From Acidimicrobiia bacterium (GTDB lineage Bacteria; Actinomycetota; Acidimicrobiia; Acidimicrobiales; CADCSY01), in the NCBI GenBank assembly GCA_050249235.1, contig JBFWQW010000002.1, positions 7,936 through 71,935 on the forward strand: a stretch of DNA of 64,000 nt, given 5' to 3'. The translations under genes were made by a program, and so were the position numbers. This document shows, piece by piece, positions 3,001 through 52,407 of the stretch. Positions within the stretch are counted from its first letter, which is position 1, and every line of letters starts with the position of its first letter. Below the pieces are notes generated by a model that ran no database searches, was not told where the DNA came from, and saw only the letters and a program-made list of their open reading frames with translations.

Positions 3001-3987
3001 ATGGCAGGGACCGCGATACGGCTCCAGTCCGTCAGCAAGCGGTTCCCCGGATCGGCGACGGATGCCGTGACCGACCTCGACCTCGACCTCGAGGAGGGGA
3101 CGGTCACCGCGCTCGTGGGCCCGTCCGGGTGCGGCAAGACCACGACCCTGCGGATGGTCAACCGCCTCATCGACCCGACGGCCGGCTCGATCGAGCTCTT
3201 CGGCACGGACGTCCGCTCCCTACCGGTGCACGAGCTCCGCCGCGGCATCGGCTACGTGATCCAGCAAGCCGGCCTGTTCCCCCACCGCACCGTCGCCGCG
3301 AACATCGCCACGGTCCCCCAGCTGCTGGGCTGGGACAGGGCCCGGGTCCGGGCCCGCGTCGACGAGCTCGTCGATCTGGTCGGCCTGCTCCCCGAGATCC
3401 TCGACCGCTACCCCGTCGAGCTCTCGGGCGGCCAGCAGCAGCGGGTGGGGGTGGCCCGGGCCCTCGCCGCCGATCCCCCGGTGCTCCTCATGGACGAGCC
3501 CTACTCGGCCGTCGACCCGATCGTGCGGGCCCGGTTGCAGGACGAGCTGGTCCTGCTGCAGCGCCGGGTCGGCAAGACGATCGTGCTCGTCACCCATGAC
3601 ATCGACGAGGCCATCAAGCTCGCCGACCGCATCGCCCTCCTCAACGTCGGCGGCGTCCTCGAGCAGTTCGGCACGCCGGACGACCTCCTGCGGGCGCCCG
3701 CCAACGGGTTCGTCGAGCAGTTCCTCGGCCGGGAGCGGTCGCTGCGACGGCTGGCGCTGGTGCCGGCCGGCTCGGTCGACCTCGACCCCGCGCCCGGCGA
3801 CGGTGCAGGTGCCGGGCTGCCCCGCATCCCGTCCGGGGCGCCCCTGCGGGAGGTGGTCGACGCGCTGGTCGCCGGCACCACCGACCGGGTGCTCGTCGTC
3901 GACGCCGACGGGCGGGGGCTCGGGACGCTCACCATCGAGGGCGTGCGCCGGGCCCTCGGCCCGGCGGCCGAGGTGGCGCCGAGGTGA
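3001..3987 (+). CDS. Osmoprotectant (glycine betaine/choline family) ABC transporter ATP-binding protein with a C-terminal CBS-like region
   Basis: Walker [10 protein letters not shown], signature [15 protein letters not shown], Walker B LLMDEP, H-loop VTHD. The tail is a regulatory CBS-like segment as in OpuCA/OpuBA. Confidence 0.9.
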
Positions 3988-7726: not shown

Positions 7727-7844
7727 CGGGCGACCGTAGCGGCCGGCCCTCCCCGAGCCGGACGACTTGGAGCTCGGAGGGCGTCGCGCCTTGCTCGGCG
7801 CAGGAGCCGATCGAGCGCGACGTGACCGTGCCGCGGGCCATCGG

Positions 7845-7967
7845 AGGGTGCGCCGACAGGCGCACCCTGTGGCCCGAGCGGCCCGGCGCCGGAGGCGCCG
7901 AGAGAGGAGAACGCAGCGCCTTCTCGGCGACGAAGGAGCCGAGAACCAGAACGGACGTGACCTGTCC
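7845..7967. repeat. Structured intergenic repeat element, locus A (hairpin plus about two 44-bp-type units)
   Basis: A perfect hairpin AGGGTGCGCC-GACA-GGCGCACCCT (7845-7868) comes first. The unit at 7871-7914 matches the 44-bp unit at 51060 in 40 of 44 positions. A degenerate second unit and a GGACGTGACC right end follow. The 18-mer AGGGTGCGCCGACAGGCG is identical to 51036-51053. Confidence 0.75.
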
Positions 7968-7977
7968 GCGCGGACTC

Positions 7978-8877
7978 TCAGGGCTCCATCGGCGCCGGTC
8001 CGGCTTCGGCGAGCTCGCGCTCGACCTGGGCCCAGGTGAGCTCCGGCGAGCGCCGGTCGAGCGCGATGCCCCGGTCGCGGTCGTCGGCCTGCGACTGGTT
8101 CGCGAAGCGGATGAACAGGGAGGCGATGATCACCCACAGGTAGGTGCCGGCCAGGAGCTTCATCATCGTGGCCGCCAGCTGCTGGTCCTCGAGCGCGGTG
8201 AGGCCCCAGATCCGCCCGACCCGGTCGTAGGACTCGTAGGCCACGTGCTCGGCGAACACGAGGATCCCGGCCGGCACGGTCGGCACGACCGACTGGAGGA
8301 AGAGGTGGGCGGCCTGCACGAGCAGGGAGAAGCGCAGCTCGGGCAGGGGCGAGCACACCCCCATCCACACGATCAGGCCGGTGGTGACGACGAGCAGGTG
8401 CACTCCGTAGTGGGCGAAGGGGTTCGTCACCGACGCCTCCACCACCAGGGGCCAGTGGCTGAACACCACGACGGCGTTGAAGAGGATCGTCGCCGGCACC
8501 AGCCGGGTGAGCCACCGCACGACCCGGTAGCCGCGCCCGTCCCCCACCACCATCCGGGCCAGCCAGGTCGGTGTGGCGAGCAGCGCCATCGGCGGCACGA
8601 CCAGCGAGAGCAGGAGGTGCTGGGCCATGTGGGCGCTGTAGAGGTGCTCCTCGGCGATGTCGTGCACGGGCCAGTCCGACGCCACCCACAAGGTGACGAT
8701 GGTGGCCACGAACCAGCGGAGCTGGGCCGGGGTGACCACCGGCTCGCCCTCGAGGGTCGCCGACGGCCCGATGCGGCGGACGGCGTAGGCGTAGAGGCCG
8801 ATCAGGCCGAGGAGGAGCGCCCAGACCTCGGGGTGCGGCTGCCACCGCCAGACGTCGACGGCGGCGACCACGGCCAC
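7978..8877 (-). CDS. ctaG: Cytochrome c oxidase assembly factor CtaG (caa3 type, membrane)
   Basis: A 299-aa polytopic protein with a HMAQHLLLSLVVPPMALLATP motif. It is the last gene of the cta operon. Confidence 0.8.
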   Translation of the reverse strand: MAVVAAVDVWRWQPHPEVWALLLGLIGLYAYAVRRIGPSATLEGEPVVTPAQLRWFVATIVTLWVASDWPVHDIAEEHLYSAHMAQHLLLSLVVPPMALLATPTWLARMVVGDGRGYRVVRWLTRLVPATILFNAVVVFSHWPLVVEASVTNPFAHYGVHLLVVTTGLIVWMGVCSPLPELRFSLLVQAAHLFLQSVVPTVPAGILVFAEHVAYESYDRVGRIWGLTALEDQQLAATMMKLLAGTYLWVIIASLFIRFANQSQADDRDRGIALDRRSPELTWAQVERELAEAGPAPMEP

Positions 8878-29607: not shown

Positions 29608-30018
29608 ATGGCACCTCGGAAGAAGCGCATCGTCACCGACGAGCACAAGGCGGCAATGGCGGAGGGACGCACCCAATCGCGGGCGGTTTCGTCCTATCTC
29701 GAGGCCCTCGAGCTGCACCGTCCGAAGCGGGGCCGGAAGCGCACGACCGACTCCATCGACAAGCGCCTCAGCGCCATCGACGCCGAGCTCCCGACGGCCA
29801 ACCCGATCAAGCGGCTTTCGTTGATCCAGGAGCGGCTCGACCTCGTCAACGAGCGCGAGACCCTCGGCACGAGCGTCGACATCAGCTCGTTCGAGGACGA
29901 GTTCGTCGCCGCCGCCGGTCCCTACAGCCAGCGAAAGGGCATCAGCTACGCCGCCTGGCGTGAGCTCGGCGTGCCCCCGGCCACCCTCAAGCGGGCCGGC
30001 ATCACCCGCGCCATGTAA
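29608..30018 (+). CDS. Hypothetical basic protein (136 aa) inserted in the pur cluster
   Basis: ATG 29608. The product is MAPRKKRIVTDEHKAAMAEGRTQSRAVSSYLEAL...GISYAAWRELGVPPATLKRAGITRAM. It has a Lys/Arg-rich N-terminal half and ends with TAA. It is the only plus-strand gene between purL and purQ. Confidence 0.6.
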   Translation: MAPRKKRIVTDEHKAAMAEGRTQSRAVSSYLEALELHRPKRGRKRTTDSIDKRLSAIDAELPTANPIKRLSLIQERLDLVNERETLGTSVDISSFEDEFVAAAGPYSQRKGISYAAWRELGVPPATLKRAGITRAM

Positions 30019-30019
30019 C

Positions 30020-30255
30020 TGCGCAGCTCCGCTTCGCTTCGCAGCTGGGCGTGCGACGCAGCCGAACCCTTCTGAGCAGCTGCTCCGGCTGGCGCCTGCG
30101 CAGCCTCGGCAGCGCTTCGCTTCGCAGCTGGGCGTGCGACGCAGCCGAACCCTTCTGAGCAGCTGCTCCGGCTGGCTGTGCTGATGCGCAGCTCCGCTTC
30201 GCTTCGCAGCTGGGCGTGCGACGCAGCCGAACCCTTCTGAGCAGCTGCTGCTCCG
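30020..30255. repeat. Tandem repeat, three copies of a 77-88 bp unit
   Basis: An identical 63-nt core GCTTCGCTTCGCAGCTGGGCGTGCGACGCAGCCGAACCCTTCTGAGCAGCTGCTCCGGCTGGC occurs at 30031-30093 and 30114-30176. The third copy, from 30196, is identical for 54 nt. The array fills the convergent spacer before the purQ stop. Confidence 0.9.
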
Positions 30256-30266
30256 CGGGTCGGGGT

Positions 30267-30932
30267 TCAGCTGGCGGCTTCGAGGAGGCTGCGGAGGAGG
30301 GGGATGCCGTCCTCCGAGCCGAGGAGCGGGTGGCTGGCCCGCTCCGGGTGGGGCATGAGGCCCACGACGTTCCGACCTTCGTTGCAGATGCCGGCGATGT
30401 CGTCGATCGAGCCGTTGGGGTTGTCCACGTAGCGGAAGATCACCCGATCGTCGGCTCGGAGCTCGGCCAACGTCTCGGGTCCGCACGTGTAGTTGCCCTC
30501 GAAGTGGTTGATCGGGATCCGGAGGAGCGATCCCTTCCCGGCCTTCGAGCTCAGCACGCTGTCGGTCGACTCGACCCGGAGCGTGGTGGTGGTGCACAGG
30601 AACTTCAGGCCCCGGTTCTTCTGCAGCGCCCCGGGCAGCAGACCGGCCTCGGTGAGCACCTGGAACCCGTTGCAGATGCCGACCACAGGCCCGCCCGAGG
30701 CCGCGAAGTCGGCCACCGCCGTCATCACCGGTGAGAAGCGGGCGATGGCGCCGGGCCGGAGGTAGTCGCCGTGGGCGAAGCCGCCGGGCACGATCACCGC
30801 GTCGTTGGGGCCGACGGTCCCGTCGCCGTGCCAGAGCAGCTCGGCCGTGCCCCCGAGCGACTCGACCGCCTCGATGGCGTCGCGCTCGCAGTTCGACCCG
30901 GGGAAGAGCACCACCCCCACGCGGGCCGTCAC
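30267..30932 (-). CDS. purQ: Phosphoribosylformylglycinamidine synthase glutaminase subunit PurQ
   Basis: GTG 30932 (VTARVGVVLFPGSNCERD). It has the nucleophile GICNGFQ and GLMPHPER. There is a GTGA overlap with purS. Confidence 0.9.
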   Translation of the reverse strand: MTARVGVVLFPGSNCERDAIEAVESLGGTAELLWHGDGTVGPNDAVIVPGGFAHGDYLRPGAIARFSPVMTAVADFAASGGPVVGICNGFQVLTEAGLLPGALQKNRGLKFLCTTTTLRVESTDSVLSSKAGKGSLLRIPINHFEGNYTCGPETLAELRADDRVIFRYVDNPNGSIDDIAGICNEGRNVVGLMPHPERASHPLLGSEDGIPLLRSLLEAAS

Positions 30933-39657: not shown

Positions 39658-39705
39658 GGTGCTCTCCTTGCCGACGAGGTCGGTCGGATCACGGGGTCGG
39701 TGGGC

Positions 39706-39771
39706 TCAGGGGATCGGGCGGGGTCAGGGATCGGGCGGCGTCAGGGAATCGGGCGGGGTCAGGGCCGCCGG
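39706..39771. repeat. 17/18-bp tandem repeat (3.5 units) in the hspR-clpB spacer
   Basis: The units are TCAGGGGATCGGGCGGGG, TCAGGGATCGGGCGGCG and TCAGGGAATCGGGCGGGG, followed by TCAGGGCCGCCGG. The last TCA is the hspR stop codon on the minus strand. Confidence 0.8.
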
Positions 39772-47351: not shown

Positions 47352-49157
47352 TCAGCGCCGGCGGTTGGTGGCGTCGAGGACGGCCCGGGCCACAGCGTCG
47401 AGCCGGTTGCCCCCGCGGACCGGCGCCGAGCCGGTGACCATGTCGTCGACCGAACCCGCCGCGACGACGACCCCGACCACGGCCACCTCGCCCCCGGCCG
47501 ACGACAGCACGTCGGCGAACTCGACCCCGAGGCCGGGCCCGCCGCCATCCCCGAGGGCGTCGAGGCCCCGGGCGGTGGCCTCGGCGACCAGGCGCTGGGT
47601 GCCCGCCCGCGACGCCATCCCCTCCGCCCGACCGGTGACGATCCGGTGCCCGTGGCGCAGCTCGACCTCGACGGAGAAGGTCGACCCCTCCTGGGCGGCC
47701 GTGACCCTGGCGAGCACCGGCCGGAGCCCGGCGGTGGGCGGCGCCGAGGCGACCGGCGGGGCCGGCTCCGGCTGGGCTGGTGGCGCCGAGGCGACCGGCT
47801 GGGCTGGTGGCGCCGAGGCGGCCGGCGGGGCTGACGGCGCCGAGGCGGCCGGCGGGGCCGGTGGCTCGGGCGGGAGGGTCCGGGCCGCCTCGGCCGGGGC
47901 CCCCGGGCGCAGGACGCGGGTCTCGGCCGTCGAGCCGAGCGGCATGACCCGGAGGTCGACCACCTCGGGCACGGCCCCGGCCACCGCCTGGATCCGGTCG
48001 AGGATGGCCTCGGGCAGCTGCTCGGTGTCCGTGGCCGGGCGGACCAGCACGCCGACGTGCAGGCGGCCGGTCTCGTCGCTCACCCGGGCCGCCAGCACGT
48101 CGGGGAGCTCGTACAGACGCTCCTCGATCTCGCGCTCGGGCCAGGCCATCGAGGCGATCCTACGAACGGGCCCGGTCGGCGCCGGGGAGCCCCCGGCCGT
48201 CGGCTCGGAGCCCTCGCCGTCCGGTCCACCGTCCATCGCCGCCACGTCGGTCGCACCGGTTCGAGGCCGCACCGAGCGTCCGGGGTCGCCGCCCCGGGTG
48301 CGGCGGCGCTGGTCGAGGAGCTGCTGGTCGGCGGCGTCGACGAGCTGCTCGAGCCCGAGGCCGTCGTCCGGGAAGCCGGCCACGCCGTAGCTGAAGGACG
48401 GGGCCTGGCCGATGGTCCGGTCGAGCAGCGGCCCCACGTCGGCGGGCCGTGTCTCGGGGAGCACGAGCACGAACTCGTCGCCGCCGACGCGGTACACGGC
48501 GTCACCGGACCGGAGGTGGCGGCTGACGGCGGTCGCCAGGCGGCGGATGGCGTCGTCGCCGGCGGCGTGGCCCTCGGAGTCGTTCACCCGCTTGAGGCCG
48601 TCCATGTCGATCACGATCACGCTGAGCGGGCGGCCGTGGCGCTGGGCCGTGGCCAGCAGCGGCGAGGTGTCGCGGTCGAGCGCCCGCCGGTTGCCGACGC
48701 CGGTCAGCGGGTCGAGGAAGGCCGCCGCCTCGAGCCGGCGGAAGGCCCGCTCGCTGACGGCGACGAGCAGGACGTCGACCAGCCGCCCGAGCACCTCGAG
48801 GGCCGGCATGGCGTCGGCGGGGTCGAGCTCGGCCAGGAGGTGGCGGTGCAGGATCTCCCGGAAGGCCGCCATCTGCTCGACCGACACGGCCGCCTCGTGG
48901 TCGAAGTCGAGTGGCGAGCGAAGGACCGCCACCGCCTCGGCCGACCCGGGGTCGGCCAGCCGGAGCGCGTCGGCGACCGCGGCCACGAACGAGCGGGCCA
49001 CCGAGGGCGCCGGGGGCGAGCCGGGGCAGGTCTCGGCGCAGCGCTCCCGCCACGCCGCGGCGAGGGTGGGCGTGTCCCGGCTCAGCACCTCGGCGGCCCG
49101 GTCCGGACCGGTCACGGCCGGCGCCGGGCGGGGAGGCGGGTCGAGGGTCCCGTGCAC
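47352..49157 (-). CDS. GGDEF-domain protein with a Pro/Ala repeat linker and an unassigned C-terminal region
   Basis: The GGDEF core is DPLTGVGNRRAL...RVGGDEFVL. It is followed by about 330 aa with no motif I recognise and a PA-rich repeat. The GTG 49157 start is uncertain. Confidence 0.75.
   Translation of the reverse strand: MHGTLDPPPRPAPAVTGPDRAAEVLSRDTPTLAAAWRERCAETCPGSPPAPSVARSFVAAVADALRLADPGSAEAVAVLRSPLDFDHEAAVSVEQMAAFREILHRHLLAELDPADAMPALEVLGRLVDVLLVAVSERAFRRLEAAAFLDPLTGVGNRRALDRDTSPLLATAQRHGRPLSVIVIDMDGLKRVNDSEGHAAGDDAIRRLATAVSRHLRSGDAVYRVGGDEFVLVLPETRPADVGPLLDRTIGQAPSFSYGVAGFPDDGLGLEQLVDAADQQLLDQRRRTRGGDPGRSVRPRTGATDVAAMDGGPDGEGSEPTAGGSPAPTGPVRRIASMAWPEREIEERLYELPDVLAARVSDETGRLHVGVLVRPATDTEQLPEAILDRIQAVAGAVPEVVDLRVMPLGSTAETRVLRPGAPAEAARTLPPEPPAPPAASAPSAPPAASAPPAQPVASAPPAQPEPAPPVASAPPTAGLRPVLARVTAAQEGSTFSVEVELRHGHRIVTGRAEGMASRAGTQRLVAEATARGLDALGDGGGPGLGVEFADVLSSAGGEVAVVGVVVAAGSVDDMVTGSAPVRGGNRLDAVARAVLDATNRRR
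47740..47862. repeat. In-frame 27-bp tandem repeat (about 4 units) inside the GGDEF gene
   Basis: The unit GGCGCCGAGGCG(A/G)CCGGC(G/T)GGGC... recurs four times, and the first unit carries a 15-nt insertion. It encodes SAPPAQPVA / SAPPAASAP-type units on the minus strand. Confidence 0.8.
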
Positions 49158-49315: not shown

Positions 49316-49717
49316 ATGGCCCTCACACCGGACGAGATCCGATCTCGGGAGTTCCACCTCGCCGACCGGGGCTACGACCGCGCCGAGGTGCAGGCCTTCC
49401 TCGCCCGGCTCGCCGACGAGGTCGGCGACGGTGCGGCCCTGCCGTGGGCGGAGGCGGAGGAGCGGCTGCTCCTCGTCCTCGACGCGGCCCGGCGGGCCGT
49501 CGAGACCGTCCGCGAGGAGGCGTCCCGCGCCCTGCGGGCGGTGGGCGACCGGGCCGCCGAGGTCGCGGTCGCGCCCGAGCCGACCCCTCCCGCGGGCGCC
49601 GACCTCGACGACCTCCGCCACCGGCTGGCGGCGGCGCTCGAGGACGTCGAGTCCGCGCTCGGTGCCATCGACCCGGGCGATCAGCGGACGGAGCCCTCGA
49701 CCAGGCCCAGCTCGTAG
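49316..49717 (+). CDS. DivIVA-domain protein
   Basis: The N-terminus LTPDEIRSREFHLADRGYDRAEVQAFLARLADEV is the DivIVA signature, and the RBS is GGACGGAG. The 3' end overlaps the convergent LuxR gene by 37 nt. Confidence 0.7.
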   Translation: MALTPDEIRSREFHLADRGYDRAEVQAFLARLADEVGDGAALPWAEAEERLLLVLDAARRAVETVREEASRALRAVGDRAAEVAVAPEPTPPAGADLDDLRHRLAAALEDVESALGAIDPGDQRTEPSTRPSS

Positions 49718-50349
49718 GCACGGGCGATGGCTTGGGGCCGGTTCCTGGCCCCGAGCTTGCGGAAGAGGCGGCTCTGGAGGTTCTGCACCGTCTTCGGGGT
49801 GATCCCGAGCCCGACCGCCGTCTCCCGAGCCGTCTCGCCCTGCTCGATCGAGCGGAGGATCTCGGTCTCCCGGCGAGTGAGGGTCGGCGCTGCGTCGGCG
49901 GCCACCTTCCCGGCTCGGAGCCGGTCGACCACGAGGCGGGCCTGGCCGGCCACGAGGAAGGGGTTGCCGATGCCGACGACGCGGACGGCGGCGAGGAGCC
50001 GCTCGACCTCGACGCCGGCGTGGAGCACGGCGTCGGCCCCCCCCACCAGCAGCTGCATCGTCCGGTCGTCGGAGGGCGGGCCGTCGAGCATCACCACGAT
50101 CCGGGCGTCGAGGGACTGCGCGCCGCGCCAGTCCTCGGGGGTGGGCTCGACGAGGACGGCGACGACGATGGGCGGGCCGGCGTCGTCGGGCAGCGCCTCG
50201 AGGCGGACGAGGTCGACGACGTCGAGGCCTCCGGTTCGCAGCAGGATCTCGACCGCCTCCCGCTCCACTCCGGCCCGGCCGAGCACGACGACCGCGGCCG
50301 GCACGGCCGGCGCCCCGGCCGGGCTCCCTCCCGTCGAGACGTCGGTCAT
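49681..50349 (-). CDS. LuxR-family regulator with a degenerate receiver-like domain
   Basis: The C-terminal HTH is LTRRETEILRSIEQGETARETAVGLGITPKTVQNLQSRLFRKLGA. The N-terminal domain is receiver-like but lacks the DD pair, the phospho-Asp and the Lys. Confidence 0.75.
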   Translation of the reverse strand: MTDVSTGGSPAGAPAVPAAVVVLGRAGVEREAVEILLRTGGLDVVDLVRLEALPDDAGPPIVVAVLVEPTPEDWRGAQSLDARIVVMLDGPPSDDRTMQLLVGGADAVLHAGVEVERLLAAVRVVGIGNPFLVAGQARLVVDRLRAGKVAADAAPTLTRRETEILRSIEQGETARETAVGLGITPKTVQNLQSRLFRKLGARNRPQAIARAYELGLVEGSVR

Positions 50350-50951
50350 GCGGCTCCGAGCACCCCGATCCGGTGGGCCACGGCGACGGCGTGGGCCCGG
50401 CCCCGGGCCCCGAGCTTGTCGAGGATGCGGCGCTGGACGAGCTCGACGGTCCGCAGGCTGACGCCGAGCTCGGCGGCGGTCTGCTCCGACGTCTCCCCCG
50501 CGGCCATGCGCCGCAGCACGTCGCGCTCGCGCTCGCCGAGGAGGGCGCGGGTGGGCAGCTTGCGGCGCTCGGGCTCGGCCGCGGGAGGCAGCGGGAGGAG
50601 CCGACCGCGCATGGCCGCCCGCAGGCCGACGCCGCCGGCGCCGTAGGACACCAGGACGACGCCGAGCTCCTCGGCCGTCGCCTCGTGGTCGGCCCGGCGA
50701 CCGCGGTGCAGGGCGAGGACCCGGCAGCGGGGATGGGCCTCGGCCAGCCGGGCCACCAGGCCGGCCAGCTCCCAGCCCTGGGGCTCGAGCTCGACGAGCA
50801 GGAGCTCGCCCCGGTGGAGGCCCACCAGCGCGAGGGCCTCCTCGCCGTCGGCGGCTACCCCGACCACCTCGATGCCCCGGCGCTCCTCGGCGAGGAGCCG
50901 GGCGATCCCCACCCGGACCAGCCGGCGGCCTTCCTGCACGATCACCCGCAC
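50346..50951 (-). CDS. LuxR-family regulator with a degenerate receiver-like domain
   Basis: GTG 50951 with a GAGGTGA RBS. MRVIVQEGRRLVR replaces the canonical DD pair with QE, and LLLVELE places Glu where the phospho-Asp should be. The HTH is LGERERDVLRRMAAGETSEQTAAELGVSLRTVELVQRRILDKLGA. There is an ATGA overlap with the downstream paralogue. Confidence 0.8.
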   Translation of the reverse strand: MRVIVQEGRRLVRVGIARLLAEERRGIEVVGVAADGEEALALVGLHRGELLLVELEPQGWELAGLVARLAEAHPRCRVLALHRGRRADHEATAEELGVVLVSYGAGGVGLRAAMRGRLLPLPPAAEPERRKLPTRALLGERERDVLRRMAAGETSEQTAAELGVSLRTVELVQRRILDKLGARGRAHAVAVAHRIGVLGAA

Positions 50952-51059
50952 GAGGTCACCTCACTGGAGGCAGTCGCAGGTCGCGGTGCGCGGTCGGCGG
51001 GGCACCCCGCCATCATGACCCAGAGGCGGGCCGAGAGGGTGCGCCGACAGGCGGTCCGG

Positions 51060-51229
51060 GGCCCGAGCGGCCCGGCGCCGAAGGCGCCCAGAGCGGAGAA
51101 CACGGCCCGAGCGGCCCGGCGCCGAAGGCGCCCAGAGCGGAGAACACGGCCCGAGCGGCCCGGCGCCGAAGGCGCCCAGAGCGGAGAACACGGCCCGAGC
51201 GGCCCGGCGCCGAAGGCGCCCAGAGCGGA
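51060..51229. repeat. Perfect 44-bp tandem array, 3.9 copies (structured intergenic repeat element, locus B)
   Basis: The unit GGCCCGAGCGGCCCGGCGCCGAAGGCGCCCAGAGCGGAGAACAC occurs at 51060, 51104 and 51148 in full and at 51192 for 38 nt, with no mismatches. Each unit contains GGCGCC-GAA-GGCGCC. The period is not a multiple of 3. Confidence 0.95.
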
Positions 51230-51249
51230 TGTGACCGATCCTGGCGCCT

Positions 51250-52407
51250 CTACGAGTCGGGCGTCGAGGGACCGGGCTCGGGCGTCCACGCCGCCGTGGA
51301 CGGGGTCCACGCCGGGGGCGCGCCTTGCGCAGCCGAGCCCTCGTCGGCGGGCGCCGGGGGAGCCGGCGCTTCAGCGGCGCCGAGCGAGTCGAGGCTGCGC
51401 CGGAGCTCCTGGGACGCCTCGACCAGCTGGACCCGCAGCGACTCCTGGAGCTGGAGCAGCGACGAGAGCTGGGTCTCGGCCTCCGAGCGGATGGTGCTGG
51501 CGTGCTGCTCGGCCTCCTCGCGGGCGCCGGCGACCTTGGCCGCGGCCTCCTCGTCGGCGAGGCGGAGGCGCTCGGCGGCCCGGCGCTCGAGCTCGTCGAC
51601 CTCCTCGCGGCGCCGCGTCAGGTCGGCCAGGGCCTCGGACTGCGTGAGCTCGACCTCTTCACGCGCCTTGCGGCGCTCCTCCTCGGCGGCGTCGTGGCTG
51701 GCCCGCAGCACCCAGGCCACGTGCTCACCCAGCTCGGCGAACCGGTCGGCGGCCGGGGCACCCCCGCCGCCGCCGGCCTGGGCCGCCCCCCGCGCCGCCT
51801 CGAGCTCCTCGAGGGTCGCCCGGTAGCTCGTCGCCGCGGCGTGCAGGACGGCGGCGAGGCGTTCCCGGGTCTGGCCCTCGAGGCCCTCCAGGAGGTCGTC
51901 CCGCTCCAGCGCCTCGGGTGCGATCCGGAACTGGTGCTCGTACATCGACACGGTCGATCCTTCCGTCTCACGTTCGGGGGGCGTCTCGGGTTCGGGGTCT
52001 TCGGTGCTCGGTCGCTGGTCCCGGTCGTCGACGGCGGGGGGCGCCACGGGATCGCTTGATCCGGGGGGCGGTCCCGTCGCCACGGCGAACGGTTCGAGTA
52101 CTCCGTATCGACGCCGACCGGCGGCCGAGTTGAGGCCGAATCCGACCACGAGGGCGCCGGCCCCGGCGATCGCCAGGCCGGCGACGTCGCCCCCCGTGAC
52201 GGGAAGGCCCGTGCCGACCGGTCCGGTGCGGTCGGGGACGAGGCCCGGCCCGGGCGGGGATGGCGTCGACGTCGGGGGGGTCTGGGGACCGGGCTCGGTG
52301 GGCGGTGATCCCGGCGGATAGCTCTCGGCCGCGCCTGCCGATGCGGCCCCCTCGAGCAGCAGCGGAATCGTCAACGACAGCGCCAGGGCCGTCTTCTTGC
52401 GCTTCAC
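51250..52407 (-). CDS. Secreted/membrane protein with an internal LPXTG-like sorting signal and a C-terminal coiled-coil domain
   Basis: GTG 52407 with a GAGGAGG RBS. The order is a signal peptide (MKRKKTALALSLTIPLLLEGAASAGA), a Pro-rich stretch, LPVTGG plus a hydrophobic helix plus RRR at aa 68-100, and then about 285 further residues rich in E/A/R heptad-like sequence. Confidence 0.6.
   Translation of the reverse strand: MKRKKTALALSLTIPLLLEGAASAGAAESYPPGSPPTEPGPQTPPTSTPSPPGPGLVPDRTGPVGTGLPVTGGDVAGLAIAGAGALVVGFGLNSAAGRRRYGVLEPFAVATGPPPGSSDPVAPPAVDDRDQRPSTEDPEPETPPERETEGSTVSMYEHQFRIAPEALERDDLLEGLEGQTRERLAAVLHAAATSYRATLEELEAARGAAQAGGGGGAPAADRFAELGEHVAWVLRASHDAAEEERRKAREEVELTQSEALADLTRRREEVDELERRAAERLRLADEEAAAKVAGAREEAEQHASTIRSEAETQLSSLLQLQESLRVQLVEASQELRRSLDSLGAAEAPAPPAPADEGSAAQGAPPAWTPSTAAWTPEPGPSTPDS

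Follow-up and report, generated by a model that had tools for sequence, protein, structure and literature searches.

A 64,000-nucleotide stretch of DNA from an Acidimicrobiia bacterium (assembly GCA_050249235.1, contig JBFWQW010000002.1, positions 7,936 to 71,935; hereafter the window) carries, upstream of a pair of LuxR-type regulator genes, a perfect 44-bp tandem array at 51060–51229, which is probably the internally amplified core of a small, non-autonomous, modular repeat resembling a MITE (miniature inverted-repeat transposable element). An earlier sequence-only reading of this DNA had treated the repeat unit as private to a locus of the variable-number tandem repeat (VNTR) kind; this was not borne out, the unit being the core module of a dispersed family that has a second copy in the window and copies on at least 120 further contigs. 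The evidence comes from the distribution of the core, the terminal modules that flank it, the covariation of its hairpin stems, and the orthologous loci of relatives that are free of the element.

The 44-bp tandem array and its spacer

On the plus strand, 51060–51229 reads as 3 full copies and one 38-nt copy of GGCCCGAGCGGCCCGGCGCCGAAGGCGCCCAGAGCGGAGAACAC with zero mismatches. Tandem Repeats Finder returns a period of 44, 3.9 copies and 100% matches (score 340) for the same interval, and a pattern search recovers the 3 complete units with 0 mismatches, 0 being expected from 100 shuffles, so that the perfect array with its shortened last copy stands as the sequence-only reading described it. 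The units lie at 51060–51103, 51104–51147 and 51148–51191, followed by the partial unit at 51192–51229, and match the conserved block of the family (positions −3 to +40, see below). Folding gives for each unit a first hairpin, P2 (GGCC-CGAGC-GGCC), a second, P3 (GGCGCC-GAA-GGCGCC), and then the tail CAGAGCGGAGAACAC, in agreement with the GGCGCC-GAA-GGCGCC hairpin that had been noted. A CRISPR array is ruled out, the units being head-to-tail with no spacers.

The sequence and the positions of the open reading frames (ORFs) also confirm the reported placement of the array in the spacer between the TAG stop of a 385-aa ORF (51250–51252, minus strand), referred to below as the envelope gene, and the first GerE/LuxR-type gene, whose GTG start (50951) is preceded by GAGGTG and lies 109 nt from the array. 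The window has a G+C content of 72.8%, and the periodicity of G+C at third codon positions (GC3) amounts to 0.9–1.0 in the flanking genes. This periodicity collapses over about 50950–51340, and the spacer is therefore non-coding, as had been claimed; the argument originally given for it, namely that a period of 44 is not divisible by 3, is insufficient alone, since the unit contains no T on the plus strand (no A on the minus strand) and all six frames are free of stops. For the same reason, spurious long ORFs run through the array. The inference of a recent expansion from the perfect identity of the copies appears plausible.

A dispersed repeat family with a conserved core

The sequence-only reading had proposed a BLASTN search of the unit against the whole genome; a low-stringency BLAST against the window itself brought up another, single copy at 7871–7912 (39/42 identical), with the left flank GAGGGTGCGCCGACAGG in common with the array locus, so that two loci of the family are present in the 64 kb. 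A 23-mer of the unit that contained the rare CAGAGCGG tail matched just 2 genomes in a scan of a genome collection, once each in an Iamia sp. metagenome-assembled genome (MAG) and in another Acidimicrobiia MAG, at unrelated loci and with 37 nt identical. The 29-nt core pattern GGCCCGAGCGGCCCGGCGCCNNNGGCGCC, used in one metagenome scan, was found on at least 120 further contigs with differing flanks, and the named proteins neighbouring these loci belong to Acidimicrobiia or Acidimicrobiales MAGs; viral contigs scanned with the same pattern gave 0 matches. In about 730 kb of DNA flanking the family loci, a hidden Markov model of the core detected 17 additional diverged copies, or about 1 per 35–40 kb.

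Column statistics over 109 instances delimit a conserved block from −3 to +40, reading CG(T/G) GGCCCGAGCGGCCC GGCGCC-GNA-GGCGCC RAGAGCGGGRA, whose columns are the only strongly conserved ones; on either side, conservation falls to background. Within the block, 93–98% conservation is reached by GAGCGG (+31 to +36) and, in the GNA loop, by the G and the A, although these lie outside the query pattern. The 44-bp unit of the window is the conserved core block of the family, and an unusual trait of the family is that this core is conserved across many Acidimicrobiia lineages and is common to several scaffolds.

No described family was matched in the collections searched. Rfam 15 gave only 4 tRNAs for the window at the gathering score and, for 15 family loci at E ≤ 1, one chance-level chrB-b match located elsewhere than in the elements. 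With the 134-nt element of the window (see below) searched for in plasmids by BLAST and the array element in phages, only chance-level matches inside coding genes were returned. The core string is absent from the text of PMC and bioRxiv, and the searchable literature yielded no paper connecting Acidimicrobiia with repetitive extragenic palindromic (REP) or MITE elements. The family thus seems to be an abundant and undescribed one in uncultured soil Acidimicrobiia, with roughly one copy per 30–40 kb; small modular interspersed repeats are a known kind, while this family itself is probably unreported.

Modular anatomy of the elements

The core is joined to different outer modules, for which we use the names S-type (short-hairpin) and Lg-type (long-hairpin). 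The 46 S-type instances, both window copies included, start with GAGGsyGCGCC-GAYA-GGCGCrsCC, which forms a 9-bp hairpin, P1, and end with ...GACGTGACCTATCCGCGCAACCCTCT(A); between the core and the 3′ end they carry a second, degenerate core, which has a GNA-loop hairpin of its own. Their two ends are inverted repeats of each other, though imperfect ones. When the terminal inverted repeat (TIR) pattern GAG-NNN-GCGC-S-GAYAGG was searched as inverted pairs, such pairs were found 112–135 nt apart in nine loci, among them 7844/7977 of the window. The terminal sequence that the ends of any cognate insertion sequence (IS) would have to match is GAGGGTGCGCCGATAGG.

The window copy found by BLAST belongs to a full-length, single-copy element of 134 nt at 7844–7977 (plus strand), which was recognized by the TIR pattern, BLAST and folding, and which comprises in order the 5′ TIR with P1, the core (7871–7912), a degenerate second core-like module, and a 3′ TIR that matches the 5′ TIR at 13/17 positions. 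Its neighbours, both on the minus strand, are a 299-aa ORF, which ends on one side of it, and, starting on the other side, a gene whose N-terminus resembles that of a seryl-tRNA synthetase by eye.

Comparison with this and other elements shows that the array locus has the structure A-B(3.9)-C, with A at 51035–51059, the B array at 51060–51229 and C at 51230–51252, all read on the plus strand. The 5′ module A consists of the TIR GAGGGTGCGCCGACAGG and a degenerate 3′ half of P1, as indicated by a match to the TIR pattern at 51035 and by an alignment that includes the 7844 copy along with 32 other S-type elements. The 3′ module C, TGTGACCGATCCTGGCGCCTCTA, is degenerate and was aligned by eye to S-type 3′ ends at about 70% identity, the family 3′ end being GACGTGACCTATCCGCGCAACCCTCTA; module C finishes in 3 nt complementary to the TAG stop of the envelope gene. 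In the family, A and C are terminal inverted-repeat modules of about 17–25 nt, of which A also forms the local hairpin P1, and B is a 44-nt two-hairpin core followed by the purine-rich GAGCGG tail. The array element measures 218 nt, or 86 nt with one unit, and other members of the family have B with n = 1 or n = 2.

The Lg-type (38 instances, about 89 nt) starts with (A/G/C)TGAGCGAGCG. In operons, it amounts to a 30-codon ORF, for example MSERPRGGYPAEQRAWPERPGAEGARSGER, that shares bases of its (A/G)TG start with the TGA of the gene before it and bases of its own TGA with the ATG of the gene after it (loci L103, L048 and L050; Lg elements also occur at L104 and L123). Tandem Lg copies with a period of 89 (3 × 31 − 4) preserve this chain of overlapping starts and stops, a layout that by analogy is suggestive of translational coupling like that of the mycobacterial interspersed repetitive unit (MIRU).

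Covariation and folding of the hairpins

In an alignment of 34 S-type elements, P1 shows 4 pairs with compensatory changes in 28 cells, a value reached by 0 of 500 column shuffles, and the covariation collapses in a control in which the partners are slid against each other. P2 and P3 are invariant in this alignment merely because the search pattern had fixed them. In diverged copies they do vary; of the output of a permissive flank-only pattern, which was mostly noise, only the hairpin variants were used. With the flanks kept, P3 occurs in such copies as GCAGC/GCTGC, GCCGCC/GGCGGC, GGCCC/GGGCC, GCTGC/GCAGC, GGCGC/GCGCC or GGCC/GGCC, and in one diverged copy P2 is swapped for GGCGC-GAA-GCGCC. 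The loop of P3 is GNA (GAA 59, GCA 18, GTA 15, GGA 14) and that of P1 is GAYA (GATA 16, GACA 7); these latter counts rule out an assignment of the P1 loop to the GNRA type.

Since the stem sequences change with pairing kept, the data argue against a double-stranded DNA site and for a hairpin in single-stranded RNA or DNA, and they are counted here in support of a hairpin structure that would be under selection in the family. The wobble pairs carry no strand signal (GU/UG 13 versus AC/CA 13). Whole S-type elements fold better than their dinucleotide shuffles (z −3.6 to −4.0, 0/200 as stable), and the element at 7844–7977 gives z = −3.95 on the plus strand and −3.63 on the minus strand, again with 0/200 shuffles as stable.

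Probable insertion at the LuxR locus

The spacer of the array can be compared with those of five orthologous loci with the same gene order, whose LuxR proteins share 74% (L127, L128), 67% (L129) or 59% (L130, L131) identity with the first regulator of the window. In L127–L131 the spacers (109–166 nt) contain no trace of the element. What is retained in all of them, as in the window, is the motif TGGGTCATGATGGCGG, which lies at 51007–51022 on the minus strand, about 55–70 nt before the LuxR start, includes the palindrome TCATGA, and forms invariant columns across 7 loci with 59–100% LuxR identity; it is a candidate promoter or operator, or part of the native leader region, of the LuxR pair. Because the relatives at 59–74% identity lack the element yet keep TGGGTCATGATGGCGG, the element appears to be a lineage-specific insertion between the stop of the envelope gene and the native LuxR leader. 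Its end lies 12 nt from TGGGTCATGATGGCGG.

The first GerE/LuxR-type regulator downstream of the insertion (201 aa) is encoded at 50346–50951 and the second at 49681–50349, both on the minus strand, followed by a gene for a GGDEF protein. A plus-strand ORF of 133 aa (49316–49717), which overlaps the second LuxR gene at the 3′ end of the latter and has a weak match to DivIVA (PF05103), is an annotated gene in public assemblies and keeps its position in all the orthologous loci. The 385-aa ORF itself (51250–52407, minus strand) has no Pfam match, and its counterpart is a hypothetical protein of an Acidimicrobiia bacterium MAG. It carries a signal peptide, an LPVTGG motif, a transmembrane segment and a coiled-coil tail. 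At about residues 67–100, LPVTGG, a hydrophobic segment and RRR follow one another, resembling a sortase sorting signal; beyond it, about 285 residues extend with a coiled-coil-like region and a Pro/Ala-rich tail, and the ORF may encode a membrane protein of unusual build or consist of two reading frames that have been fused.

Genomic placement and tandem amplification

With the strands of neighbouring genes taken from a rough gene caller based on ORFs and GC3, the left neighbour (the element being read in its plus sense) is co-directional in 59 of 72 cases (p = 4e-8), and in 24 of these 59 its stop lies 41–49 nt before the core, which is where the outer module has its first bases. The right neighbour has no strand bias (34 versus 31); co-directional right genes often start 13–30 nt after the core, behind a AGGAGCGG or AAGAGCGG tail. 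The 3′ TIR end of S-type elements can equally adjoin a stop codon, as at 7978 and 51250 of the window.

Tandem amplification recurs in the family. Whole elements form two-copy arrays with periods of 89 (L052, L086, L102), 87 (L076, twice) and 76 (L071). Two-core elements with a period of 52 and the common spacer (T/A)GCAGCGTCG(A/C)A occur at L051 (1180–1265) and L077 (7290–7385), both on the minus strand; the P3 stems of their two cores differ yet stay complementary, and they look like old duplications that would have been kept as hairpins. A core-only array with a 42-nt period (14 codons) × 1.9, reading ...ARAASSEAARAENM SRAARSEAARAENR..., lies at 3421–3501 of L115 (minus strand), in frame within a predicted N-terminal extension of an ORF that is P450-like by eye, and represents either coding sequence that arose from the repeat or a start that has been over-called. 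The 3.9 copies of the window form the largest array seen in the family.

Three other repeats were observed in the window. An unrelated intergenic repeat of 83 bp × 2.8 (89% identity) at 30022–30249 is flanked by convergent ORFs, of which one has its TAA stop at 30016–18 and the other, on the minus strand, ends at 30267, and may represent another interspersed-repeat family. A 27 bp × 3.6 repeat (90% identity) at 47768–47865, in the C-terminal part of the 601-aa GGDEF ORF, is probably an in-frame 9-residue repeat, and a G-rich 17–18-bp tandem repeat, GGGGTCAGGGGATCGGGC, occupies 39674–39764 with 3.2–3.6 copies at 86–92% identity.

Reality and copy number of the array

The locus can be followed in several assemblies. 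Its protein is present in three NCBI MAGs, which carry MGD9798409.1, MGE0794032.1 and MGE3833295.1 and whose longest contig has 82,839 bp, and in the one in which the spacer was compared (GCA_050177425.1, locus L002), an identical 298-nt spacer with 3.9 copies is found. Logan contigs (k = 31) from SRR27751816 and SRR27751815 stop 30 and 33 nt into the outermost (first/last) units, and a contig from SRR26136625, belonging to a strain with a 97%-identical LuxR, has the repeat and breaks off at the same place in the array. Such breaks in three independent runs point to a genuine tandem repeat longer than k, and the repeat therefore exists in the reads of all three. The exact copy number of 3.9 is less secure than this. 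The array of 170 bp exceeds the usual short read of about 150 nt, the read length being assumed here, and by our own reasoning it falls within the only range, up to k+43, that de Bruijn graphs with k = 127 or 141 cross without a loop; moreover, every k = 31 assembly breaks at the array. It might thus be supposed that the repeat exists but that its 3.9 perfect copies are a product of the assembler and not the true allele. We regard this as rather improbable, because the window and the contig of GCA_050177425.1 agree on the 298-nt spacer, a longer, loop-forming array would normally break the contig rather than give one of at least 64 kb, and perfect or near-perfect two-copy arrays are found at other loci (L052, 100%; L102, 99%).

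Discussion

Starting from the family membership, the modular anatomy, the lineage-specific presence, the hairpin covariation and the reality of the repeat, a course of events can be proposed in which the mode of mobility, an origin by slippage and any effect on expression are conditional. The element would have entered this lineage alone, immediately behind the stop of the envelope gene and just upstream of the native LuxR leader. Slipped-strand mispairing or unequal recombination would then have multiplied its B module, as is on record for boxB in pneumococcal BOX elements, to 3.9 identical copies, whose lack of mismatches would reflect either recency or homogenization. As a consequence, the minus-strand transcript would gain eight GC-rich hairpins from 21 nt past the stop codon, with no U-tract. 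The passive effect of this hairpin stack in the 3′ untranslated tail of the upstream mRNA may be to slow 3′-to-5′ decay, and it may partly insulate the two transcription units. The array is probably not a tuned element of the LuxR promoter; any effect would probably be exerted through the hairpins at the mRNA 3′ end.

Mobility is what we infer from the copy number, the TIRs and one comparison of a filled with empty sites. As expected for MITEs, which stay below about 300 bp, the elements are 112–135 nt long and show no GC3 coding signal, have inverted pairs of TIRs in nine loci (the 3′ end of the array locus being degenerate), and are dispersed over at least 120 contigs and two loci of the window, with orthologous LuxR spacers that are free of them. 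The bases flanking the elements match in TCA/TCA (L090, L096) and CGA/CGA (the L033 group), differ by one base in TAA/TGA, TGA/TAG and TCG/TCA, and mismatch in others, and the element ends themselves resemble T(N)AGAGG. The ends presumably also resemble those of the IS1031 group of the IS5 family (GAG, 3-bp TNA), a likeness on which no assignment is based here.

Several observations weigh against a MITE-like origin as the whole account. The target-site duplications are less than clean, the 3-bp TNA-like flanks matching in some elements only, and neither a TIR pair at IS-like spacing nor a partner transposase or autonomous element with such ends was found in the about 730 kb. The comparison of filled and empty sites is a single one made across diverged relatives (59–74%), so that exact junctions are unreadable. 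Conservation is higher in the core than in the TIRs, an unusual state for a purely selfish MITE and one that hints at a function at the host or RNA level; the strong polarity toward the left neighbour points in the same direction, and both window copies are of the minority orientation, antisense to their flanking genes. The single 44-nt unit is no more stable than shuffles (z −0.9 and 0.0), and neither the array region nor the whole spacer folds better than shuffles on either strand. Finally, the copy number derives from assemblies that may not be independent.

The most serious competing explanation, which we nevertheless consider unlikely, is that the core is a sequence-specific gene-end signal comparable to the mycobacterial TRIT (Tuberculosis Rho-independent terminator) motif, acting as a factor-dependent terminator, a processing site or the target of an RNA-binding protein, and that the 4-copy multimer controls read-through from the envelope gene to the LuxR pair. 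The excess conservation of the core over the TIRs favours it, as do the GAGCGG tail and the loop G and A, which are conserved outside the query positions, the stems that covary between fixed flanks, and the association of the 5′ end with the stop of a co-directional gene; the TRIT has the same narrow association with stop codons, for which its authors proposed a binding factor (PMC3152330). This polarity is, however, inapplicable to the two window copies, which are antisense to the genes around them, and the balanced wobble pairs and the lack of an Rfam match also count against a signal of this kind. On the minus strand the hairpins of the array are followed by GUGUUCUCC, in which 8 nt contain 4 U; there is no U-tract, and a scan for intrinsic terminators over 50300–51800 on both strands gave zero sites. 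Mycobacterial RNA polymerase reportedly needs a U-tract at intrinsic terminators (PMC3993855), and the stacking of terminators that had been suggested for this array is for this reason not favoured; with no combination of hairpin and U-tract and a fold no better than shuffles, the suggestion is unsupported. In a wider form that is a shade more doubtful, the core might be a class-wide gene-end recognition module of the Acidimicrobiia (for termination, processing or stabilization) hitch-hiking on several mobile scaffolds. If this were true, the 4-copy array would be a natural multimer setting transcription or mRNA survival between the envelope gene and the LuxR pair, and the core would be a new class-wide cis element with a matching trans factor.

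The remaining explanations concern the locus itself. A regulatory VNTR, in which changes in copy number adjust LuxR expression by altering the promoter spacing or the structure of the leader, is suggested by the position of the array near the LuxR start, by the perfect identity of the units, which permits slippage, and by the precedent of BOX, in which the number of boxB modules is strain-variable and modules can affect neighbouring genes (PMC3049150). It is very unlikely, since the unit is a generic family core at no fewer than 120 unrelated loci and the conserved TGGGTCATGATGGCGG lies between the element and the LuxR gene, so that a change in copy number would shift only the end of the upstream gene and not the promoter geometry. 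If TGGGTCATGATGGCGG held a −10 element, it would be the terminal module, not the array, that sat at −35. A scan for sigma-70-like promoters over 50300–51800 found none in or around the array, relatives without the element manage with 109–166-nt spacers, and no difference in copy number was seen, the contig of the 97% strain breaking within the array; the effect on promoter spacing put forward in the sequence-only reading is accordingly judged improbable. Scarcely credible is the notion of iteron-like, double-stranded binding sites (GGCGCC-N3-GGCGCC) for the adjacent regulators: each unit does contain a 15-bp palindrome, and two genes for helix-turn-helix regulators adjoin the array, but the core also stands beside unrelated genes in many genomes, the diverged palindromes change sequence and keep pairing, which indicates that structure and not sequence is constrained, and the LuxR orthologues of relatives have no array. 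Hardly any weight can likewise be given to a coding repeat or upstream ORF. Three units make 132 bp (44 codons), a 76-codon ORF from a GTG at 51191 runs to within 9 nt of the LuxR start, none of the six frames contains a stop, and elsewhere in the family a 30-codon ORF with ATGA overlaps or an in-frame N-terminal position is seen (L103, L048, L050, L115); against this, there is no GC3 periodicity over 50950–51340 where the flanking genes have it, the 44-nt period shifts the frame at each unit, and the unit junctions have no start/stop overlaps in the sense orientation.

The preferred reading, an amplified core within a MITE-like element, is worth comparing with known small repeats. The boxB module of BOX is about 45 nt long. 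BOX has boxA and boxC as terminal modules around a variable tandem boxB, with open frames on both strands; its arrays with more copies vary more between strains, and its 3′ stem-loops have been suggested to stabilize transcripts (PMC3049150). Like the BOX elements of S. pneumoniae and S. suis, the present ones are small, non-coding, interspersed and mostly intergenic composites with inverted-repeat termini, a tandem internal module flanked by the terminal ones, open frames on both strands and predicted stem-loops. They are nevertheless an analogue and not a member of that family: general scans, in which no BOX-specific model was run, revealed no sequence relationship, and homology is unlikely because of the different phylum (Actinomycetota versus Bacillota) and base composition (about 73% G+C here). 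In addition, the internal module is here the most conserved part and is common to several terminal architectures, and whereas ISSpn2 or ISStso1 has been proposed as the mobilizer of BOX, no candidate IS was found here in the about 730 kb.

Among actinobacterial repeats, MIRU-VNTR loci resemble the family in their 40–100-bp units at tens of intergenic sites, often in tandem, and in MIRUs short ORFs overlap at their ends with the genes on either side (PMC3184786), as does the Lg variant with its 30-codon ORF, (A/G)TGA overlaps at both ends and 89-nt period. The array of the window differs from them in being antisense to both flanking genes, in having junctions (AACAC|GGCCC) with no start or stop, in repeating the core alone and not the whole element, and in showing no sequence similarity. 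TRIT, of which 147 copies narrowly placed at stop codons were reported in mycobacteria by the RNIE study together with a proposed binding factor (PMC3152330), is similar in combining conserved sequence and structure, in reaching about 100 or more copies per actinobacterial genome at stop codons with no canonical U-tract, and in the stop-to-core distance, which is 41–49 nt in 24/59 cases here, the stop often lying in the first bases of the element. TRIT is, however, a single long palindrome, restricted to Mycobacterium and mostly bidirectional, whereas the present elements string several short hairpins together, have a clear polarity and TIR modules, and are amplified in tandem. A likeness to the REP sequences and bacterial interspersed mosaic elements (BIMEs) of Enterobacteria, which go together with RAYT transposases, is drawn from general background and a review (PMC3184786) and consists in GC-rich extragenic hairpins near gene 3′ ends, which form mosaics, are sometimes in tandem, and have been proposed as stabilizers of mRNA 3′ ends; the family consensus differs in having no conserved GTAG head 5′ of an imperfect palindrome, the elements show no pairs of alternating orientation, and their conservation extends across genera instead of being species-specific.

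Taken alone, the array is a minor curiosity and ordinary within its family, but it marks an abundant family of small repeats in a poorly studied class, with a BOX-like build, MIRU-like variants with overlapping ORFs, and a TRIT-like association with stop codons. Elements of this kind break short-read assemblies, as three do at this array, and create spurious ORFs and N-terminal extensions in annotation; on the other hand, they could be put to use as markers for typing or give access to the biology of mRNA 3′ ends. If the ultra-conserved core is a recognition signal and not a passenger, it would point to a new mechanism at gene ends in bacteria of high GC content that are without canonical terminators.

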